A DNA stretch of 64,000 nucleotides, from NCBI GenBank assembly GCA_050742975.1, contig JBOGDQ010000070.1:19889-83888 (forward strand), read 5' to 3'. Position 1 is the stretch's first letter. Every line of letters starts with the position of its first letter. Origin of the DNA: Jatrophihabitantaceae bacterium (GTDB lineage Bacteria; Actinomycetota; Actinomycetes; Mycobacteriales; Jatrophihabitantaceae). Below are positions 14,289 to 64,000 of this stretch, in pieces. Below the pieces are notes generated by a model. It did not search any database and was not told the DNA's origin. It saw only the letters and a list, made by a program, of their open reading frames with translations. The position numbers and the translations under genes were made by a program.

Positions 14289-14361
14289 TGGGCCCCGTGG
14301 GGCTCGAACCCACAACCTACGGATTAAAAGTCCGCAGCTCTGCCAATTGAGCTAGAGGCCC
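14289..14361 (-). tRNA. tRNA-Lys (anticodon UUU)
   Basis: The reverse complement GGGCCTCTAGCTCAATTGGCAGAGCTGCGGACTTTTAATCCGTAGGTTGTGGGTTCGAGCCCCACGGGGCCCA folds as a cloverleaf with a 7-bp acceptor stem, anticodon loop CTTTTAA and T-loop GGTTCGAGCC. CCA is not encoded. Confidence 0.95.
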
Positions 14362-55392: not shown

Positions 55393-56853
55393 GTGGCGTT
55401 CTCGGATCTGCAGGACTTCCTCTCGGCGCTGGAGCGCGATGGCGACCTCGCGCGGGTCACGGCGCCGGTGGATCCACACCTCGAGGTGACCGGGATCGTC
55501 CAGCGCGTGCTGCGCGAGCAGGGACCGGCGCTGCTGTTCGAGAACCCGACGCGCGGCCGGATGCCGTTGCTGATGAACGCGTTCGGCACCCAGCGGCGGA
55601 TGGCGCGCGCGCTCGGTGTCGACGACCTGGACGAGATCGGCGCCCGGATCGCCGAGCTGCTCAAGCCCGAGTTGCCCCGCGGCGTCGGCGGCCTGCGCGA
55701 TGCGCTCGGGAAGGTGTCGCAGCTGCGGGCCGCGCCCCCGCGGCGGGTGCGGAGCGCGCCGTGCCAGGAGGTGATCGTCAAAGGCGACGACGTGGACCTG
55801 ATCGACCTGCTGCCCGGCGTGCAGTCGTGGCCGGACGACGGTGGCGTGTTCCTGAATCTCGGGCTGACGCACACCAAGCACCCCGAGACCGGCGCGCGGA
55901 ACCTCGGCATGTACCGGCTGCAGCTGCAGGATTCGCGCACCGTCTCGCTGCACTGGCAGATCCACAAGGACTCCACCTCGCACGCGGCGATCGCCGAGCG
56001 GCGGGGCGAGCGACTGCCCGTCGCGATCGCGTTCGGCTGCCCGCCGGCGGTGACGTACTCGGCATCCGCGCCGCTGCCCGCCGACATCGACGAGTACCTG
56101 TTCGCCGGCTTCGTCCAGCGCGAGCGCGTCGACATGGTCGACTGCGTCTCGGTGCCGCTGCAGGTACCGGCCGCCGCACAGATCGTGCTGGAGGGCTGGG
56201 TGTCACCGGGCGAGCGCCTACCGGAAGGGCCCTTCGGCGATCACACCGGTTTCTACACGCCGGTCGAGCCGTTCCCGTTCGTGCGGGTCGAGACCTTGAC
56301 GATGCGCGAGCAGCCGATCTACCAGTCGATCATCGTCGGGCGGCCGCCGCAGGAGGACGGGCCGCTGGGCAAGGCGACCGAGCGGATCTTCCTGCCGCTG
56401 ATCAGGATGAGCGTGCCGGAGATCGTCGACTACGACCTGCCCGAGGCCGGCGTGTTCCACAACTGCTGCATCGTCTCGGTCGACAAGCGCTTCCCCAAGC
56501 ATGCACAGAAGGTGATGAACGCGATCTGGGGTGCCGGGCTGCTGTCGCTGTCCAAGCTGATCGTCGTCGTGGACGCCGACTGCGACGTGCACGACTATGC
56601 CGAGGTGGCCTGGCGGGCGTTCGGCAACGTCGACTACGCACACGACGTGCAGCACACGGTCGGCCCGGTCGATCACCTCGATCATGCGTCGTACGAGCAG
56701 TTCTTCGGCGGCAAGCTCGGCGTGGATGCGACCCGCAAGCTGCCGACCGAGGGCTACCACCGTGCCGGTGGCTGGCCGTCGGAGTGTGTTCTCGACGCGG
56801 CGACGCTCGGGCTGGTGGACCGCCGCTGGAGCGAGTACGGGATCGGGCGATGA
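55393..56853 (+). CDS. UbiD-family decarboxylase (menaquinone via futalosine, SCO4490-like)
   Basis: FSDLQDFLSALERDGDLARV...GMYRLQL...HWQIHKD UbiD motifs, in a cluster with UbiA-like, UbiX and mqn genes. Confidence 0.88.
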   Translation: MAFSDLQDFLSALERDGDLARVTAPVDPHLEVTGIVQRVLREQGPALLFENPTRGRMPLLMNAFGTQRRMARALGVDDLDEIGARIAELLKPELPRGVGGLRDALGKVSQLRAAPPRRVRSAPCQEVIVKGDDVDLIDLLPGVQSWPDDGGVFLNLGLTHTKHPETGARNLGMYRLQLQDSRTVSLHWQIHKDSTSHAAIAERRGERLPVAIAFGCPPAVTYSASAPLPADIDEYLFAGFVQRERVDMVDCVSVPLQVPAAAQIVLEGWVSPGERLPEGPFGDHTGFYTPVEPFPFVRVETLTMREQPIYQSIIVGRPPQEDGPLGKATERIFLPLIRMSVPEIVDYDLPEAGVFHNCCIVSVDKRFPKHAQKVMNAIWGAGLLSLSKLIVVVDADCDVHDYAEVAWRAFGNVDYAHDVQHTVGPVDHLDHASYEQFFGGKLGVDATRKLPTEGYHRAGGWPSECVLDAATLGLVDRRWSEYGIGR

Positions 56854-56876
56854 GCGAGGCGGACAGGGTGTCCGGC

Positions 56877-56903
56877 GATCTTCCTGCGCCGGGTAGCGCT
56901 GGT
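56877..56903 (+). repeat. partial (27-nt) copy of the 48-nt element
   Basis: GATCTTCCTGCGCCGGGTAGCGCTGGT, abutting a full copy. Confidence 0.75.
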
Positions 56904-56951
56904 GATCTTCCTGCGCCTGGTGGTGCCCGTGACGGTATGGGTAGGAAGATC
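56904..56951 (+). repeat. 48-nt palindromic repeat element, copy c
   Basis: GATCTTCCTGCGCCTGGTGGTGCCCGTGACGGTATGGGTAGGAAGATC. Confidence 0.85.
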
Positions 56952-56975
56952 AAGACCGCGAGCCCGGCGCGCGTC

Positions 56976-57023
56976 GATCTTCCTGCGCCCGGTAGCGCCC
57001 GTGACGGTACGCGCAGGAAGATC
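56976..57023 (+). repeat. 48-nt palindromic repeat element, copy d
   Basis: GATCTTCCTGCGCCCGGTAGCGCCCGTGACGGTACGCGCAGGAAGATC, 21 nt before ATG 57045. Confidence 0.85.
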
Positions 57024-57044
57024 CGTCAGTTCCTGCGGCTGGTG

Positions 57045-57884
57045 ATGATCGAGCACTCGGTGTTCGCGCTGCCGTTCGCGTACATCGCCGCGCTCACCGC
57101 GATGTGGACGCAGAGCCGCTCGGTGCACTGGGTGCAGCTGCTGCTGATCACCGTCGCGATGGTGTCGGCGCGCACCGTCGCCATGTCCGCGAACCGCATC
57201 CTGGACCGCAACTTCGACGCGCTCAATCCCCGGACGGCGCGGCGCGAGCTGGTGACCGGCGCGCTGAGCGTCCGCTCGGCCTGGGTCGGTACGGCCATCG
57301 CGCTGGCGATCTTCCTGGCGACATGCGCCGCGCTGTCCTGGCTGTGCCTGGCCCTTGCCCCGATCGCGATCTTCCTGCTCGTCCTGTACTCGTACGGCAA
57401 GCGGTTCACGGACTTCCCGCAGGTGCTGCTCGCGTTAGCCCAGTTCGTGGCCCCGGTCGGCGCCTGGATCGCGGTCACCGGCTCGGCGTCATGGGCCGCC
57501 GTCGCGCTCGGTCTCGCGGTCGGCACCTGGATCGGCGGGTTCGACCTGATCTACTCGTGCCAGGACGCCGACGTCGACCGGCAGATCGGCTCACGCTCGT
57601 TCCCGGCCCGCTTCGGCATCCCCGCGGCCTTACGCGCGTCGTCGGTCGTGCACGGCGTGACCTTCGCCGGGTTCGCCTGGTTCGGAGTCGCTGCCGGGCT
57701 CGGCTGGGTGTGGTGGCTCGGCCTCGCGCTCATCGCGGCCGTCCTGGTCTACGAGCACGCGATCGTCCGACCCGACGACCTGTCCCGCGTGAACCGCGCC
57801 TTCTTCACCGCGAACGGCGTGATCGGCATCGGCCTGTTCACGTTCGCTCTCGCCGATCTGCTCGCCCACGGGTTGTCGCGGTGA
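57045..57884 (+). CDS. UbiA-family polyprenyltransferase (menaquinone via futalosine, SCO4491-like)
   Basis: MIEHSVFALPFAYIAAL...NRILDRNFDALNPRTARREL...D-rich motif QDADVD. The frame stays open back to ATG 56850 (ATGA-coupled to ubiD) through the repeats, so the true start is uncertain. Confidence 0.82.
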   Translation: MIEHSVFALPFAYIAALTAMWTQSRSVHWVQLLLITVAMVSARTVAMSANRILDRNFDALNPRTARRELVTGALSVRSAWVGTAIALAIFLATCAALSWLCLALAPIAIFLLVLYSYGKRFTDFPQVLLALAQFVAPVGAWIAVTGSASWAAVALGLAVGTWIGGFDLIYSCQDADVDRQIGSRSFPARFGIPAALRASSVVHGVTFAGFAWFGVAAGLGWVWWLGLALIAAVLVYEHAIVRPDDLSRVNRAFFTANGVIGIGLFTFALADLLAHGLSR

Positions 57885-57951
57885 TCGGCGCGTTTGCACC
57901 CGCTGCGCGCGCCCGCACCGCCCACCCCACGACCACTGCGGGTGCAAAGCC

Positions 57952-58575
57952 GTGAACGGGGAACGGGTGCCGTGGGTGTTCGGGGTGTCCGGGGCATCGG
58001 GCACGGGATACGCGCGCGCGGTGCTCAACGCGCTTCTGGACGCGGGTGAAGCGGTCGACCTGATCGTCTCGCGAGCCGCTCGGCTGACGCTGCTGGACGA
58101 GGTCGGGCTGAGCTTCCGCGACGCGCACTGGCGCGAGGACCTGTCGATCTGGCTCGGGCGCGACCCCGGCAACTCCGTCCACTGGCCGGCGGGCGACCTG
58201 GCAGCAGGCCCGTCGTCCGGCTCCTACCGCACGCGCGGCATGCTCGTCGTCCCGGCGTCGACCGCAGCCGTCGCCGGCATCGCGATCGGACTGTCCAAGG
58301 ACCTGCTCCAGCGCGCCGCCGACGTGACCCTCAAGGAACGCAGGACGCTCGTCGTCGTCCCGCGCGAGACGCCGTACACCCGCGCCACGCTGCAGCACCT
58401 GCTCACGCTGCACGACGCGGGCGCGATCGTCCTGCCCGCGAGCCCGGGGTTTTACAGCGCAGCGAACAGCGTCCAGCAGCTCGTCGACTTCGTCGCGGCC
58501 AAGGTGCTCGACGGGATCGGCGTGGAGCACGACCTGATCACGCGCTGGAGCGGGGATCTGGGCGGCGCGCGGTAA
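57952..58575 (+). CDS. ubiX: UbiX-family flavin prenyltransferase
   Basis: WVFGVSGASGTGYA...MLVVPASTAAVAGIAIGLS...VVVPRETP motifs. Confidence 0.9.
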   Translation: MNGERVPWVFGVSGASGTGYARAVLNALLDAGEAVDLIVSRAARLTLLDEVGLSFRDAHWREDLSIWLGRDPGNSVHWPAGDLAAGPSSGSYRTRGMLVVPASTAAVAGIAIGLSKDLLQRAADVTLKERRTLVVVPRETPYTRATLQHLLTLHDAGAIVLPASPGFYSAANSVQQLVDFVAAKVLDGIGVEHDLITRWSGDLGGAR

Positions 58576-58584
58576 CGTCCGGAC

Positions 58585-59037
58585 GTGGACTCGGTCGACC
58601 GGCAACTGCTCGACGCGCTGCGCACCAACGCGCGCGCCACCTACGCCGAGCTGGCGCGGATCGTCGGCCTCAGCGCGCCCGCAGTGCACGAGCGCGTCGG
58701 GAAGCTCGAGACCGCCGGCGTGATCACCGGCTACCACGCGGCCGTCGCGCCCGAGTCGCTCGGCTACGCGATGAACGCACTGGTCGGCATCTTCATCTCC
58801 GACAGCGCCGATACCGACGAGGTGGCCGCGCAGCTCGCCGCCCTCTCGTCGGTCGAACACTGCTGGTTCGTGGCCGGCGAGGAGACCTTCGTCGTCAAGG
58901 TCCGGGTCCCGGACGTCGCCGGGCTCGAGGCCGCGATCCGCGATCTCAATTCGATGCGCGGCGTCGCTCGTACCCGCACGACCGTCGTCCTGTCCACCAA
59001 GTTCGAGGACCGCGTGCAGGCGGTCGACCAGGACTGA
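58585..59037 (+). CDS. Lrp/AsnC-family transcriptional regulator (full length)
   Basis: HTH LDALRTNARATYAELARIVGLSAPAVHERVGKLETAGVITGY plus a RAM domain. Confidence 0.88.
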   Translation: MDSVDRQLLDALRTNARATYAELARIVGLSAPAVHERVGKLETAGVITGYHAAVAPESLGYAMNALVGIFISDSADTDEVAAQLAALSSVEHCWFVAGEETFVVKVRVPDVAGLEAAIRDLNSMRGVARTRTTVVLSTKFEDRVQAVDQD

Positions 59038-59041
59038 CTGA

Positions 59042-59941
59042 TCAGCGCAGCTGCGCGGCCACCACGTACACCGACTTCTCGCTCCGGCGCCCGGCGGTGG
59101 CGTGCCGTCGGGCAAGCTCGTCGGACTCGGCCAGGTCCGCGACCGCGAAGCCGTGCTTGTCGAGGAAGTCGACAGCGTGCTCGGGCGGCAGGCCGAACGT
59201 CACCGGCTCGCCGATAAGCCGGATCGCCTGCGCAGCCGCACGCCGCACCTGGTCGAACGGGTGCAGGCCGCCGGGCTCGTGCCAGAAGTCCATCGCGAGG
59301 GTCGAGCCCGAACCGCAGATCTCGCGCAGCGTCCCCAACGTCGCGCTGACCGCCAGCCGCGACAGGTACATGCTCACGCCCTCCCAGACGACGAAGGTCC
59401 GGACGCCGACGGTGAACCCCGAGTCCAGCAGCCGGTCGGCCAGCGACTCGGTGCGGAAGTCGATCTCGACACGACGGATGCTGTTGCCCACGAAAAGGTC
59501 CGGATGCGCCGCGACGATCTCGGCCTTGAGCCGCGACAGCGGGGGCAGGTCGACCTCGTGCACCGGACGGCCGCGCAGCTCGTCCGCGAACCGGTAGGCC
59601 CGCGAGTCGTAGCCGGCGCCGAGGACGACGACCTGCTCGGCACCGTCGGCGAGGGCCTTGCCCAGCTGCTCGTCGATGTACCGGTGCCGCAGCAGCACGA
59701 ACGTCGAGATCCCCGCGAGCTCGTGGCGCTCGGCCAGGTGCACGAGCGGGGAGCCGAGCCGCAGCGACTCGAGCACACCGCGGTAGGCCGGCGTGAGGAA
59801 CAGCGGGGCGTACTCGTCGCTGACGATCCGGTCCGCCGGACGCCGGTCCAGCTCGAGCGCGCGCGCCAGCGTCGTCCACTGCGCGGTGGCGCTGGGCCGG
59901 TCGCCGGCGTGCAGCTCGTTCGGCATCAGGGGGATTTGCAT
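59042..59941 (-). CDS. class I SAM-dependent methyltransferase (TIGR00027-like)
   Basis: VVVLGAGYDSRAYRF SAM-binding motif and VWEGVSMYL. Confidence 0.82.
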   Translation of the reverse strand: MQIPLMPNELHAGDRPSATAQWTTLARALELDRRPADRIVSDEYAPLFLTPAYRGVLESLRLGSPLVHLAERHELAGISTFVLLRHRYIDEQLGKALADGAEQVVVLGAGYDSRAYRFADELRGRPVHEVDLPPLSRLKAEIVAAHPDLFVGNSIRRVEIDFRTESLADRLLDSGFTVGVRTFVVWEGVSMYLSRLAVSATLGTLREICGSGSTLAMDFWHEPGGLHPFDQVRRAAAQAIRLIGEPVTFGLPPEHAVDFLDKHGFAVADLAESDELARRHATAGRRSEKSVYVVAAQLR

Positions 59942-60082
59942 GGTGGATCGAGGGTAGGGGATCGCGCCGGGTTCGGCAGACCTTTACGTCCTGTTTACGG
60001 GCTTTCGCGACGTCGCGAGGGACGGGTGCGGCAGCCTGACCTCAGGGCGGGTCGGTACTGGGCCGCACGTACGCTGAACGGC

Positions 60083-61228
60083 ATGGCGCTGACCGAATCC
60101 CGCAAGGCCGAGCTGACCGAGAAGGTCGCCAACCGCGAACGGCTCACCCGCCGGGACGGCGAGGACCTGTACGACTCCGACGACCTGGCCTGGCTCGGTG
60201 GCCTGGCCCACGACGTCCGCACCCGCAAGAACGGCAGCGTCGTCTTCTTCAACGTGAACCGCCACCTGAACCTGACGAACGTCTGCACCGCGTCCTGCGC
60301 GTATTGCAGCTTCCAGCGCAAGCCCGGGCAGAAGGACGCGTACACGATGCGCGTCGAGGAGGCCGTCGAGCTGGCGTCGGCGATGCAGGGCGACGGCCTG
60401 ACCGAGCTGCACATCGTGAACGGCCTGCACCCGACGCTGCCGTGGAAGTACTACCCGCGCGTGCTGCGTGAGCTCAAGGCCGAGCTGCCGGACGTCGCGC
60501 TCAAGTGCTTCACCGCGACCGAGATCCACTTCTTCGAGGAGATCAGCGGGCTGTCCGCGAGCGAGATCCTGGACGAGCTGATCGACGCCGGCCTGGAGTC
60601 GCTGACCGGCGGCGGTGCGGAGATCTTCGACTGGGACGTGCGCAAGCAGATCGTCGACCACAAGACGCACTGGGAGGACTGGTCGCGCATCCACCGCCTC
60701 GCGCACGGCAAGGGTCTGCAGACCCCGGCGACGATGCTGTACGGGCACATCGAGGAGCCGCGCCACCGCGTCGACCACGTCCTGCGGCTGCGCGAGTTGC
60801 AGGACGAGACCGGCGGCTTCCAGGTGTTCATCCCGCTGCGCTTCCACAACGACAACAACCGACTGTCGCACCTGCCGATGGCCCAGCCCGCCGACGTGCT
60901 CAAGACGTTCGCGGTGTCCCGCCTGATGCTCGACAACTTCCCGCACGTCAAGGTGTTCTGGGTGATGCACGGGCTCTCGACCTCCCAGCTCGCGCTGAAC
61001 TACGGTGCGGACGACATGGACGGATCGGTGGTCGAATACAAGATCACCCACGACGCCGACCACTTCGGCACGCCGGACAAGCTGACCCGCGAGAACCTGC
61101 TGGAGCTGATCCGCGACGCCGGGTTCACGCCCACCGAGCGCAACACGCGGTACGAGATCGTCCGCGAGTACGACGGTCCGGTGAGCCTGGCCGAGCGGCG
61201 CGCCGAACCGCAGGCGGTCTGGGCGTGA
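60083..61228 (+). CDS. radical SAM menaquinone (futalosine pathway) enzyme, MqnE/MqnC family
   Basis: CTASCAYC CxxxCxxC cluster, 381 aa. Its position next to UbiD/UbiA/UbiX/AsnC-like genes mirrors SCO4490-4494, where the radical SAM is aminofutalosine synthase (from memory). Confidence 0.82.
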   Translation: MALTESRKAELTEKVANRERLTRRDGEDLYDSDDLAWLGGLAHDVRTRKNGSVVFFNVNRHLNLTNVCTASCAYCSFQRKPGQKDAYTMRVEEAVELASAMQGDGLTELHIVNGLHPTLPWKYYPRVLRELKAELPDVALKCFTATEIHFFEEISGLSASEILDELIDAGLESLTGGGAEIFDWDVRKQIVDHKTHWEDWSRIHRLAHGKGLQTPATMLYGHIEEPRHRVDHVLRLRELQDETGGFQVFIPLRFHNDNNRLSHLPMAQPADVLKTFAVSRLMLDNFPHVKVFWVMHGLSTSQLALNYGADDMDGSVVEYKITHDADHFGTPDKLTRENLLELIRDAGFTPTERNTRYEIVREYDGPVSLAERRAEPQAVWA

Positions 61229-61290: not shown

Positions 61291-61584
61291 ATGAAGTACC
61301 AGCGCAGTGGCCCCAGCTTCGGGAGCTGGATGGGTTCGATGTGGCTCTACACGATCCTGCGCTTCGCCCTGTTCTTCGCGCTCTGGGGGCTGATGCTGCT
61401 GCTCGGCCTGCACGGTTTCGTCGCAGCGCTCGTCGCGCTCGCGCTGTCGATCCCGCTCGCGCTGGTGCTGCTCGCCGTGCCGCGCGCCCGGTTCGCCGCG
61501 ACCGTCGAGCAGCGGATGAACGCCCATCGCGACGAGCGGGCCCAGCTGGACGCCGAACTCGATCCCGAGCACCGCGACGACTGA
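61291..61584 (+). CDS. DUF4229-like small membrane protein
   Basis: 97 aa with two TMs (LYTILRFALFFALWGLMLLLGL, FVAALVALALSIPLALVLL). GAAGGAG Shine-Dalgarno upstream. Confidence 0.7.
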   Translation: MKYQRSGPSFGSWMGSMWLYTILRFALFFALWGLMLLLGLHGFVAALVALALSIPLALVLLAVPRARFAATVEQRMNAHRDERAQLDAELDPEHRDD

Positions 61585-61586
61585 CC

Positions 61587-61664
61587 GTCCTGATCACGTT
61601 TTCCCCGCGCGTCACCGGTTCGCCGACTCGCAACCGGTGCCCAGCGGGGAAACGTGATCAGGAC
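61587..61664. terminator. 78-nt compound hairpin (21-bp outer stem, 8-bp inner stem) overlapping the RT stop codon; candidate bidirectional terminator or structured RNA
   Basis: GTCCTGATCACGTTTTCCCCGC...CACCGGTT-N11-AACCGGTG...GCGGGGAAACGTGATCAGGAC. It lies between convergent genes. Confidence 0.55.
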
Positions 61665-62974
61665 CAGTCGATCCCGTCGAACGATGCGCGCAGCCGTGCG
61701 CCGAAGGCCGGGTCCAGGCTGTTGGCCCACGACATCCGCCCGAGCAGGCGCTCGCGGAAGTCCTCCGCGCCCCGCGACTGGCCGCGCCAACCGTGCACGG
61801 CGCAGTTGTGCACGATCGCGCGCAGGTTGTCGCGCTCGCGCCGTGGCAGGCTCGGGTGGTCGTTGACCACGGCGCCGAGCGCCTGCTGGCGTCCGGACGA
61901 GCCGAGCACCACGGTCTTGCGCTCGTTGCAGCGAAAGCCCTCCTCGCGCACGATCTGCCCGACGAGCTCGACGAACCGGCTGCGCGCACCACGAAGCGAC
62001 GGGCCACCGCTGAACGTCAGGTCGTCGACGTAGCGGGTGTAGCTCGCGCCGAACGCGCGCGCAAGCCCGGTGAGCCGCCGGTCGAGCGAGAACGCGACCA
62101 GGTTGGCGACGGCGGGGGACGTCGGCGCGCCCTGCGGCAGGTGTGGTGTAGCAAGCCGGCGGCCGAGTTGCCGGTGCGCGTCGCGATCACGCGGAACCGG
62201 GACGTCGCGCCACACGCCCAGCGGAACCGTCGTCGTCATGAGGCCGGTCAACGTGTGCGCGACCGCCTCCGGCAGTCCGGCCGTCCGCAGCACACCCCAT
62301 ACCCGCCCGGCCGCGATCGACGCGAAGAACGTCTCGAGGTCGACGCGGATCACGACCGCCGACCCGGCGTGCGGCTGCACCGCGGTGCGCACCGAGCGGC
62401 CGCGGACGCAGCCGTGCGCCGCGTCGTGGAGGGGGATCGGGTCCAACACGTGACGCAGCAGCCGGCGCTGGATCTCCTTCATCCGCGGCTTCGGGGCGGC
62501 CACCAGGCGCACGCCGTCGCGCTTCGGCAGCGCCCGCCAGCGGTAGTGCCGCAATGGTGCGGCGACCGTCCGCTCGAGCCCGCGCACGTCGGCGAACCAG
62601 TCCAGCTCGCCCGCGTCGAGGTCGAGCAGGCGGGCGAGCGCCGACAGGTCGTCGAGCCGGGCGATCAGACACGGTGACGGCAGGGCGGTGGTCGCGACCG
62701 GCTCCCAGTGCACGATCCGCGGCGAGCGCCGGTGCTGCCAGGCCAGCGCCCACGCCGGCCGGGTCTGCAGGTAGGCAGCGAGCTCGCGCGGTCGGTCGGT
62801 GGGCGGGTCGCGGTAGGCGTCGAGCACCTGGTCGATGAGCGCGCCCACCCAGCGCGGGGCGCGGCGCTGCCCCAGCGCGGCGGTGAGCCGCGAGTGCATG
62901 AGCGGCCGCGTCCACGGTCCGGCGAGCAGCGCGGTAGCCACACCGGCTGCGACCTGCTCGTGGCGAGCGCTCAT
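61658..62974 (-). CDS. retron-like reverse transcriptase with ~170-aa N-terminal extension
   Basis: RT motifs VIRVDLETFFASI, LPQGAPTSPAVANL, YTRYVDDLTFSG, NERKT, ALGAVVN. Start is ATG 62974 (in-frame alternatives at 63064, 63073, 63145). Confidence 0.88.
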   Translation of the reverse strand: MSARHEQVAAGVATALLAGPWTRPLMHSRLTAALGQRRAPRWVGALIDQVLDAYRDPPTDRPRELAAYLQTRPAWALAWQHRRSPRIVHWEPVATTALPSPCLIARLDDLSALARLLDLDAGELDWFADVRGLERTVAAPLRHYRWRALPKRDGVRLVAAPKPRMKEIQRRLLRHVLDPIPLHDAAHGCVRGRSVRTAVQPHAGSAVVIRVDLETFFASIAAGRVWGVLRTAGLPEAVAHTLTGLMTTTVPLGVWRDVPVPRDRDAHRQLGRRLATPHLPQGAPTSPAVANLVAFSLDRRLTGLARAFGASYTRYVDDLTFSGGPSLRGARSRFVELVGQIVREEGFRCNERKTVVLGSSGRQQALGAVVNDHPSLPRRERDNLRAIVHNCAVHGWRGQSRGAEDFRERLLGRMSWANSLDPAFGARLRASFDGIDWS

Positions 62975-63152
62975 GCCGACGGCGCCGAAAGCGCAGCAGT
63001 GAGCAGCGTGCGGCCGACTCTCATGCGGGGGGCGGCGGCAGCCAACCTCTGCCGTGCGCGCCATGAGCTTCATGACGTGAAGGCGATGGCGTGCGACGCG
63101 ATGTCCCGGCGCGATGATCGAGATCCAGGCGACGGCGACACTCACCGGTCGC

Positions 63153-63308
63153 TCAATTCGGCGTCAGCAGCGTGAACGAATCCCATCGCTCGGTGCGCCA
63201 CCGCGACGCCGCGCGCGCCCGTTCCAGCACGACGTGTTCGGCGCCGCTGTCGCTGAGCAGCTTTGCTGACCGCGACCCCCGCGTGGCCGACTCCGATGAT
63301 CAGGTCAC
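63153..63308 (-). pseudogene. N-terminal remnant of a flavin-dependent monooxygenase/oxidoreductase (frameshifted, truncated)
   Basis: Two frames together read ...[14 protein letters not shown] / [36 protein letters not shown], i.e. a GxGxxG dinucleotide-binding start plus the RWDSF.L.TPN pattern. It is cut off at TGA 63155-63153. Confidence 0.7.
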
Positions 63309-63322
63309 CTTACGTTTCTATG

Positions 63323-63340
63323 ATTGCAAACGCTAGCAAT
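63323..63340. promoter_or_regulatory. LacI/GalR-type operator ATTGCAAACGCTAGCAAT
   Basis: 14/18 symmetric positions. The core TGCAAACGCTAGCA fits TGNAANCGNTNNCA. It lies just downstream of the LacI-family gene and upstream of the monooxygenase remnant and RT. Confidence 0.6.
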
Positions 63341-63373
63341 TCGAGGCGCGGCAGATGTCGCTCGGTGAAGTGC

Positions 63374-64000
63374 TCAGCCGCTGCGCACCCTGGGCCTGGC
63401 TGCCGGCCGTGGTGTTGCACGCGCCGATTTGGTGACCGGTACGGGTGGGGGCGCGGCCGTGGAGTTGCGAACGATGAGTTCGAGCGGCAGCAGCACCGAC
63501 TTCGCGGGCACCGTGTCGTCGCGGATCCGGTCGAGCAGCAACTGGGCCGCTTCGGCACCGACCTGATACTGCGGTATGTGCACTGTCGTGAGGCTGGGCC
63601 TGAGCTTGTCGACGATCGGCATGTCGTTGAATCCGACGATGCTGATCTGCTTCGGGCAGACGATGCCGCGCTCGCCGAGCAGGTCGTAGCAACCCAGCGC
63701 GATCAGATCGTTGCCAGCGAGCACCGCCGTGAACTCGACCTTGCGGTCGAAGAGGCGGCCCAGGCACTGGGCACCCTGAATCTCCGTCCAGGCCTCGCAC
63801 TCGACGATAAGGTTGTTGGCGTGCGGGAGCCCTAGATCCCGCAATGCTTGGCGATAGGCCCGGAGCCGGATCTGGCCGGTCGAGGTGAGCTGTGGGCCCG
63901 CCAAATGGGCGATGTAACGGTGGCCGAGGCTGGCCAGGTGGCGTACGGCGAGGTATACCCCTGCGGTGTCGTCGCCAGTCACCGACGGCAGTCCGGGCGC
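63374..64000 (-). CDS. LacI-family transcriptional regulator, C-terminal part (5' end outside window)
   Basis: Periplasmic-binding-fold effector domain pattern ...AVRHLASLGHRYIAHLAGP...RLRAYRQAL...TAVLAGNDLIALG...SIVGFNDMPI...LTTVHIP... The frame is open to the window edge. Confidence 0.85.
   Translation of the reverse strand, partial: APGLPSVTGDDTAGVYLAVRHLASLGHRYIAHLAGPQLTSTGQIRLRAYRQALRDLGLPHANNLIVECEAWTEIQGAQCLGRLFDRKVEFTAVLAGNDLIALGCYDLLGERGIVCPKQISIVGFNDMPIVDKLRPSLTTVHIPQYQVGAEAAQLLLDRIRDDTVPAKSVLLPLELIVRNSTAAPPPVPVTKSARATPRPAARPRVRSG

Follow-up and report, generated by a model that had tools for sequence, protein, structure and literature searches.

The 64,000-nucleotide stretch of contig JBOGDQ010000070.1, from a Jatrophihabitantaceae bacterium, that was analysed here (the window) carries a retron-type reverse transcriptase (RT) gene on its minus strand, at 61658..62974. 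With a probability of about 0.8, this RT is a member of the clade 11 stand-alone retron family (RT_other / RT_outgroup of PADLOC), and this copy is probably a recently disabled retron in which the RT has not yet decayed. In the relatives of this gene there is a non-coding RNA (ncRNA) of retron type 5' of the RT; in the window its 5' half is gone. This truncated ncRNA is the main peculiarity of the copy, and was missed in an earlier, sequence-only reading, which took the gene for an inserted, single-gene RT module, either of an uncharacterised defence type or retron-like with its N-terminal domain as effector.

The relatives considered here are the best 80 genome loci from a scan with the RT. 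About 70 of these are from Actinomycetota, the remainder being from Rhodocyclaceae, Planctomycetia, and Myxococcales at 37–45% RT identity. At 47–75% identity are Jatrophihabitans and other Jatrophihabitantaceae, Acidothermaceae, Frankiales, and Geodermatophilaceae (Modestobacter, Blastococcus, Geodermatophilus). The family comprises 1322 clusters (50% identity) at E<1e-30; the proteins in the top 150 clusters are mostly ~410–470 aa and most align from about residue 5–12, thus including the N-terminal region.

In over 20 loci, BLASTN of the window flanks identified a conserved block of ~75 nt just 5' of where the RT starts, and alignment of the upstream regions of the relatives extended this to a conserved element of ~170–190 nt. 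RNAalifold, applied to an alignment of 43 sequences (A2), gave 41 base pairs, 28 of which have compensatory double changes. In the pairing control, 82% of the cells in A2 are paired, against 41–51% when the partners are slid, and none of 500 shuffles reached the observed values. The ends of the element form a terminal a1/a2 stem of 17–18 bp, flanked on both strands by conserved G residues. Within it are an msr hairpin (GATCGGG…CCCGATC), a second, nearly invariant hairpin (CYCCGGGG-NNA-CCCCGGGG), and an msd-type stem-loop, with CYCCGGGGNNACCCCGGGG as the hairpin motif. A TAnnnT box (TAGGGT, TATCGT, or TAGCGT) lies ~10–15 nt 5' of a1 in relatives such as L005, L004, and L012, and is probably an actinobacterial -10 element that fixes the 5' end of the ncRNA.

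A covariance model, R1, was used to locate the element. In its lower msd helix the register is off by one (30% paired), the RNAalifold register being the valid one, yet the model still separates intact from truncated copies. R1 finds the element upstream of the RT and co-oriented with it in 73 of the 80 loci, at 34–159 bits, where the distant non-actinobacterial copies score lowest and the actinobacterial relatives score 92–159 bits; weak, diverged versions are present in four more distant loci. Among the actinobacterial loci, R1 describes one coherent ncRNA family, which is matched by no family in Rfam. In the closest relatives available, whose RTs are 81% and 77% identical, the ncRNA is intact, with scores of 142 and 158 bits, and the intact ncRNA of locus L083 folds to -99 kcal/mol (z = -7.4) with a textbook retron shape. 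The presence of a covarying ncRNA of msr-msd type immediately upstream of the RT in this many related loci does not agree with the proposal that the RT is a single-gene module.

In the window there is a single R1 match, at 63150..63021 on the minus strand with 48.7 bits, and nothing else in the 64 kb. In this match, 39 model positions, those of both msr hairpins, are deleted and approximately 9 of the 17 a1/a2 pairs are non-canonical. Homology to the closest relatives (alignment A3) begins just 3' of the second msr hairpin, at ~63117, leaving a 3' remnant of the ncRNA (~63117..63028, minus strand) that is made up of the linker, the msd stem-loop (~63094..63056), and the a2 repeat (~63041..63028). 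This remnant is 88% identical to the relatives, exceeding the RT gene nucleotide identity of 73–81%, and its a2 and msd hairpin are 88–100% conserved. A junction or filler sequence (63118..63155, minus strand), which shows no homology to the 5' half of the ncRNA in relatives, occupies the place that is taken there by the -10 box, by a1 and the priming G, and by the pair of msr hairpins. The fit of 63150–63123 to a1 is forced by R1 and is taken here as an artefact of alignment, or at most as an a1 with many mutations, which leaves the position of the breakpoint uncertain within 63118–63155.

The hallmark msr hairpin was not found in the 64-kb window, even with 3 mismatches, and an inverted-repeat search within 63000–63400 found no alternative a1 complementary to a2. 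The TAnnnT box is absent at the corresponding position. The equivalent 157 nt of the window fold no better than shuffled sequence (z +1.7), the msd hairpin alone being formed. Since the closest relatives keep intact ncRNAs, the loss is specific to the lineage of the window.

The regions surrounding the RT likewise point to a rearrangement. Approximately 18 Jatrophihabitantaceae-type loci, with RT identities as low as 47%, share the gene order AMP-ligase–inositol monophosphatase (IMPase)–ncRNA–RT, which faces DUF4229–MqnE. The conservation of this chromosomal site means that there has been no recent insertion, contrary to what had been proposed, and the conserved synteny indicates vertical inheritance of the retron, a mode that largely prevails across Jatrophihabitantaceae, Geodermatophilaceae, and actinobacteria related to them. 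The window keeps the downstream side of this order, but lacks, over its whole length, the IMPase gene that lies upstream in 18 relatives. A LacI gene and an oxidoreductase stub, found in no relative locus, abut the ncRNA remnant, and it is the missing IMPase together with these two abutting genes that places the breakpoint inside the ncRNA gene.

The FAD/NAD(P)-dependent oxidoreductase stub (63156..63309, minus strand) consists of ~50 codons from the Rossmann N-terminus, with one frameshift and no start codon; its Pfam matches are weak (E 1.7e-4) and are to the N-termini of FAD_binding_3, NAD_binding_8, and Pyr_redox_3. Of the LacI-family regulator, the C-terminal ligand-binding part is present (63374..63982, minus strand; Peripla_BP_3, E 1.8e-35), with the gene extending beyond the end of the window. 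Pfam and frame translations agree with the sequence-only reading in its description of the neighbours as mqn/DUF4229 genes on one side and a decayed oxidoreductase and a LacI gene on the other.

No effector-type gene is present among the neighbours, as had been described. When open reading frames (ORFs) within +/-3.5 kb of the RT were clustered across 81 loci, no cluster occurred in more than 18 of the 81. The neighbour clusters are all lineage-restricted housekeeping synteny, of which 10 distant loci share none. This copy has therefore not just lost a universal effector that went unnoticed; no partner protein is conserved from lineage to lineage.

At L083 (5820-7323; also L084 and L085), the 77%-identical RT and its intact, 158-bit ncRNA are in a different neighbourhood, with a major facilitator superfamily transporter gene upstream and glyoxalase/aminoglycoside-resistance genes downstream, from which it would appear that the cassette occasionally relocates. 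In L054, a Geodermatophilus metagenome-assembled genome, there is no ncRNA match and the RT match begins at residue 87. In L052, L053, L057, L064, L067, and L070 the RT is matched from about residue 100 or piecewise, which suggests frameshifts or decay. On the basis of such partial RT matches, degenerate copies occur elsewhere in the family.

The RT gene itself had been described as an ORF at 61658..63145. This 495-aa minus-strand ORF exists and holds all of the RT motifs quoted for it (VIRVDLETFFASI, LPQGAPTSPAVANL, YTRYVDDLTFSG, NERKT, ALGAVVN, and TAVQPH), with a Pfam RVT_1 match at ORF residues 207-414 (E 1e-16), so that the description of a retron-like RT with a full motif set is borne out. 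Its start, on the other hand, was over-extended by 57 codons. The NCBI protein P0001, which is 438 aa, 100% identical, and known from one contig only, starts at the Met at nt 62974, and an equivalent start is used by all 96 aligned homologues. The first 57 codons of the longer ORF (62975..63145, minus strand) are therefore not protein, being instead spacer and ncRNA remnant. The annotated gene start should be moved to nt 62974, giving a coding sequence of 438 aa (61658..62974) in which the catalytic YVDD is intact.

The spacer of ~50 nt between a2 and the RT start (62971-63026, minus strand) is flanked by the direct repeat GCATGAG. An upstream ATG, at 63024, sits where the RT start codon of most relatives lies; it opens a 17-codon upstream ORF, the TGA of which overlaps the RT ATG (ATGA). 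A related long spacer occurs in L002 and L005.

By sequence and by predicted fold, the RT belongs to the retron lineage. The PADLOC model RT_other (PDLC02949) matches nearly end to end, over ORF aa 52-495 with 540.8 bits, as does RT_outgroup/retron (PDLC03740) with 514 bits; the top 25 PADLOC matches are all retron RT models. In the PDB, sequence matches are exclusively to retron RTs (Ec86, Ec78/Eco7, Ec67/Eco2, Ec83, Eco8, and Kva2), which cover P0001 residues ~138-431 alone. The AlphaFold2 model of the RT (predicted local distance difference test, pLDDT, 89.4) is likewise closest in Foldseek to Ec86, Eco7, Ec83, Eco8, and Eco2, with E-values of 1e-17 to 1e-12, and has G2L4, group II, and defence-associated RTs (DRTs) at E 3e-8 or weaker, ~5–9 orders behind. 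The gene thus falls within an already described RT family.

Two other identities were rejected on the scores of their models. The NCBIfam models Drt2, Drt3a, and Drt4 score 27.5, 22.6, and 13.9 bits against cut-offs of 390, 200, and 450, respectively. In the case of a group II intron RT or maturase, TIGR04416 gives 28 bits against a cut-off of 300, Rfam scans contain no intron RNA, and group II RTs are merely distant fold matches.

Mestre et al. (2020, Nucleic Acids Research, PMC7736814) describe a retron X-region, NAxxH, between RT2 and RT3, and a Y-region, VTG, in RT7, in which the H and the G are the most conserved. The sequence-only reading had drawn attention to non-canonical residues at these positions. 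The differences are real, and they are typical of the family. In the X-region the sequence is AVQPH here and NATPH in Ec86, the change from N and A to A and V being family-wide and H202 being invariant across 97 homologues. In the Y-region it is ALG here and VTG in Ec86, with a family consensus of (x)LG; G367 is kept in at least 90% of homologues, but the V and T are not. As judged from these alignments, the divergent motifs are a family-typical variant that retains the key H and G.

There is, at the sequence level, no decay in the RT. Where 93% or more of the sequences agree at a column, it departs from them only twice, both times conservatively (L165M and L388V); the family median is 3. The ratio of non-synonymous to synonymous change (dN/dS) is 0.17–0.36 against relatives, compared with 0.25–0.31 between intact pairs.

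The N-terminal extension, previously put at ~170 residues, is real and conserved in the family, although its length is ~135 rather than ~170 residues (aa 1-135; 62570..62974, minus strand). Structure prediction for this region by AlphaFold2 (pLDDT 84.6) gives a five-helix bundle (residues 3-80), followed by a linker and two short helices. The domain is conserved in 97 homologues and in most of the 50%-identity cluster representatives, with invariant W21, W42, P58, and L65 and a DRPRELA motif among the 97, and is kept from actinobacteria to proteobacterial members of ~40% identity. It is absent from all solved retron RTs, has no Pfam match, and finds nothing significant by Foldseek in the PDB (best E 3.9) or BFVD; it is the sole distinguishing protein feature of the family. 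The suggestion that it is an effector finds no support, as the predicted structure matches no catalytic fold, and a role in RNA or multicopy single-stranded DNA (msDNA) binding, or in oligomerisation, would be plausible.

In the intact relatives, the TAnnnT box would drive transcription of an RNA of ~170 nt immediately 5' of the RT. The ends of this RNA would pair as the a1/a2 stem, with a conserved G adjoining a1, followed by the two msr hairpins and the msd hairpin. If these systems work as characterised retrons do, the msr hairpins would be bound by the RT, the 2'-OH of the conserved G would serve as primer, and the msd would be copied into msDNA. In the window, a rearrangement would have broken the ncRNA gene, with the oxidoreductase stub and the LacI gene taking the place of everything from the promoter box to the second msr hairpin, a1 and the priming G included, and leaving the msd hairpin, a2, and the RT ORF intact. 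With no promoter box, a1, or priming G, and with the hairpins for RT recognition also missing, this copy would, by the same analogy, most likely be unable to make msDNA in cis.

Several points weigh against the view that this is a disabled clade 11 retron. The dN/dS and conservation of the RT match those of intact copies, and the remnant is as conserved as described above, where a useless RT might be expected to decay; that neither has decayed would mean that the truncation is recent or that the RT is still useful. Beyond the window, another part of the genome could hold the 5' half of the ncRNA. The junction rests on a single contig of a metagenome-assembled genome, and it is not matched exactly in the metagenome assemblies searched, a result that is uninformative. 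The clade 11 label is indirect, based on the PADLOC model labels and on matching properties. Finally, no experimental report of msDNA from a clade 11 family member was found in the accessible portions of the literature searched.

It is unlikely that the RT is still functional, either because a reciprocal rearrangement has left the 5' half of the ncRNA to pair in trans with the a2-msd part, or because the RT and its N-terminal domain have a role that does not need an msr of its own. In either version, expression could come by read-through from a LacI-controlled promoter upstream. The intact ORF, with its low number of deviations and its dN/dS like that of intact pairs, would be in keeping with this, as would the conservation of a2 and the msd hairpin, the LacI-type operator-like palindrome upstream, and the domestication that Mestre et al. 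(2020) speculate upon for clade 11. However, a recent deletion would leave the ORF just as intact, no msr-like element is found in the 64 kb, no promoter-like site is detected with sigma-70 consensus patterns, which suit actinobacteria poorly, and no precedent was found in the available parts of the literature searched. A shade less likely again is the specific proposal that the RT has been under purifying selection since the loss of the msr and works through a split ncRNA, reconstituted in trans by way of a2, or on other templates, in a housekeeping rather than a defence function. Were the RT to have remained functional, it would be working without an msr-msd in cis.

The imperfect palindrome attgctagcgtttgcaat, at 63323-63340 on the minus strand, is LacI-operator-like, with the LacI stop on one side of it and the oxidoreductase stub on the other. 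A promoter region here, if active, could read through into the RT.

That the junction is an assembly artefact is improbable. Either a chimeric join of LacI-oxidoreductase and retron sequence or the collapse of GC-rich hairpins might hide a real retron that is intact, and the metagenomic source, the occurrence of the RT protein on one contig, and the failure to find the exact junction in other assemblies would fit such an explanation. The genes are truncated on both sides of the junction, however, and the frameshift and lack of a start codon in the stub look like genuine decay, not a clean chimeric join. There is, in addition, no repeat shared at the junction, and the syntenic upstream IMPase gene is absent from the entire window.

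Very improbable is an uncharacterised, horizontally inserted single-gene RT of the DRT or UG type, or a retron-like RT with an N-terminal effector, as originally envisaged; the lack of an adjoining effector and an N-terminal domain that is conserved without a known homologue would speak for it, but the PADLOC retron models exceed 500 bits (541 and 514) where the DRT models are far below their cut-offs (14–28 bits) with no DRT or UG model among the top PADLOC matches, synteny is held to 47% RT identity, the relatives have a cognate ncRNA, and the domain is a small helical bundle.

The disabled clade 11 retron proposed here can be compared with the retrons that have been named. Mestre et al. (2020) sort retron RTs into 11 clades. 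Clade 11, in their account, is essentially confined to Actinobacteria, comprises (msr-msd)-RT systems that stand alone, and has more than one ncRNA consensus structure (two families). These authors suggest vertical inheritance of the clade as a possibility, together with its domestication for cellular functions. A 2026 SPIRE survey has hidden Markov models for clade 11 and two ncRNA models, clade11-A/B; it places the clade in Pseudomonadota, Actinomycetota, and Acidobacteriota, and rates it low in novelty. The PADLOC groups RT_outgroup and RT_other appear to be untyped groups beside RT_Ec107-like, paralleling the "clade 11" and "clade2_Ec107like" of that survey.

With the clade 11 retrons, as presented in the text available, the RT here has in common its retron lineage, a distribution mostly in Actinobacteria with some members in Pseudomonadota and other phyla, the lack of an effector, and a synteny-based signal of vertical inheritance, and its relatives share the upstream ncRNA, in which short msr hairpins and an msd stem-loop are enclosed by an a1/a2 stem. 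It differs in that the window ncRNA is without its 5' half, and in the ~135-aa N-terminal domain, a description of which was not found in the accessible clade 11 literature.

Retron-Eco1 (Ec86, type II-A; PDB 7V9U, 7V9X, 7XJG) is both the best sequence match (E 8e-27) and the best fold match (E 3.5e-17). The order of the RT motifs, the X-region H, and the Y-region G are shared, and the ncRNA architecture of the relatives is analogous. Ec86, in contrast, has no N-terminal domain and comes with an effector of NDT type; it aligns from residue ~138 here, with an identity of ~22–23% and YADD in place of YVDD.

The Retron-Eco5 (Ec107)-like branch of clade 2 is also made up of orphan msr-msd-RT systems without a consistent partner. 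It belongs, however, to another RT clade, RT_Ec107-like scoring 170 bits here against 514–541 for the best models, and is mainly found in Gammaproteobacteria and Bacillota. For type XIII retrons (clade 10), RT_XIII is the next-best PADLOC model (284 bits), and partly vertical inheritance is reported by Mestre et al. (2020). These have dedicated accessory proteins, whereas none is found here, and the match spans ORF residues 163-490 alone.

The locus would best be annotated as a clade-11-type stand-alone retron with a 5'-truncated ncRNA, and not as a novel orphan defence RT. It illustrates that "retron" calls made from the RT alone can hide inactivated systems. Clade 11 retrons are among the few retron groups that lack an effector and show signs of vertical inheritance, and for these the ncRNA model and the N-terminal domain provide experimental handles in culturable Modestobacter, Blastococcus, and Geodermatophilus. 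The window copy contributes little apart from being a natural "msr-deletion" allele.

On the downstream side, the RT is convergent with the DUF4229 gene (61297..61584, plus strand; identified by Pfam), which is a syntenic neighbour in the ~18 loci and not a partner. A long nested inverted repeat (61587..61664) fills the spacer between the two stops, with arms of 19 nt that are 95% complementary and arms of 21 nt that are 86% complementary, and no U-tract; it is probably a bidirectional terminator hairpin. A scan of 61400-63500 for sigma-70 promoters and intrinsic terminators found none, using consensus patterns that suit actinobacteria poorly.

Beyond DUF4229 is a radical-SAM gene of CofH/MqnC type for menaquinone synthesis by the futalosine pathway (60074..61228, plus strand), also a syntenic neighbour. 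It is at the end of a futalosine-pathway/prenylation cluster (55393-61228), syntenic in several relatives, that includes genes for a UbiD-family decarboxylase, a UbiA-type prenyltransferase, a UbiX flavoprotein, an Lrp/AsnC regulator, and an LCM-type methyltransferase in addition to the CofH/MqnC-type radical SAM protein. The sole match in the 64 kb above an Rfam gathering threshold is a tRNA at 14289-14361 on the minus strand.

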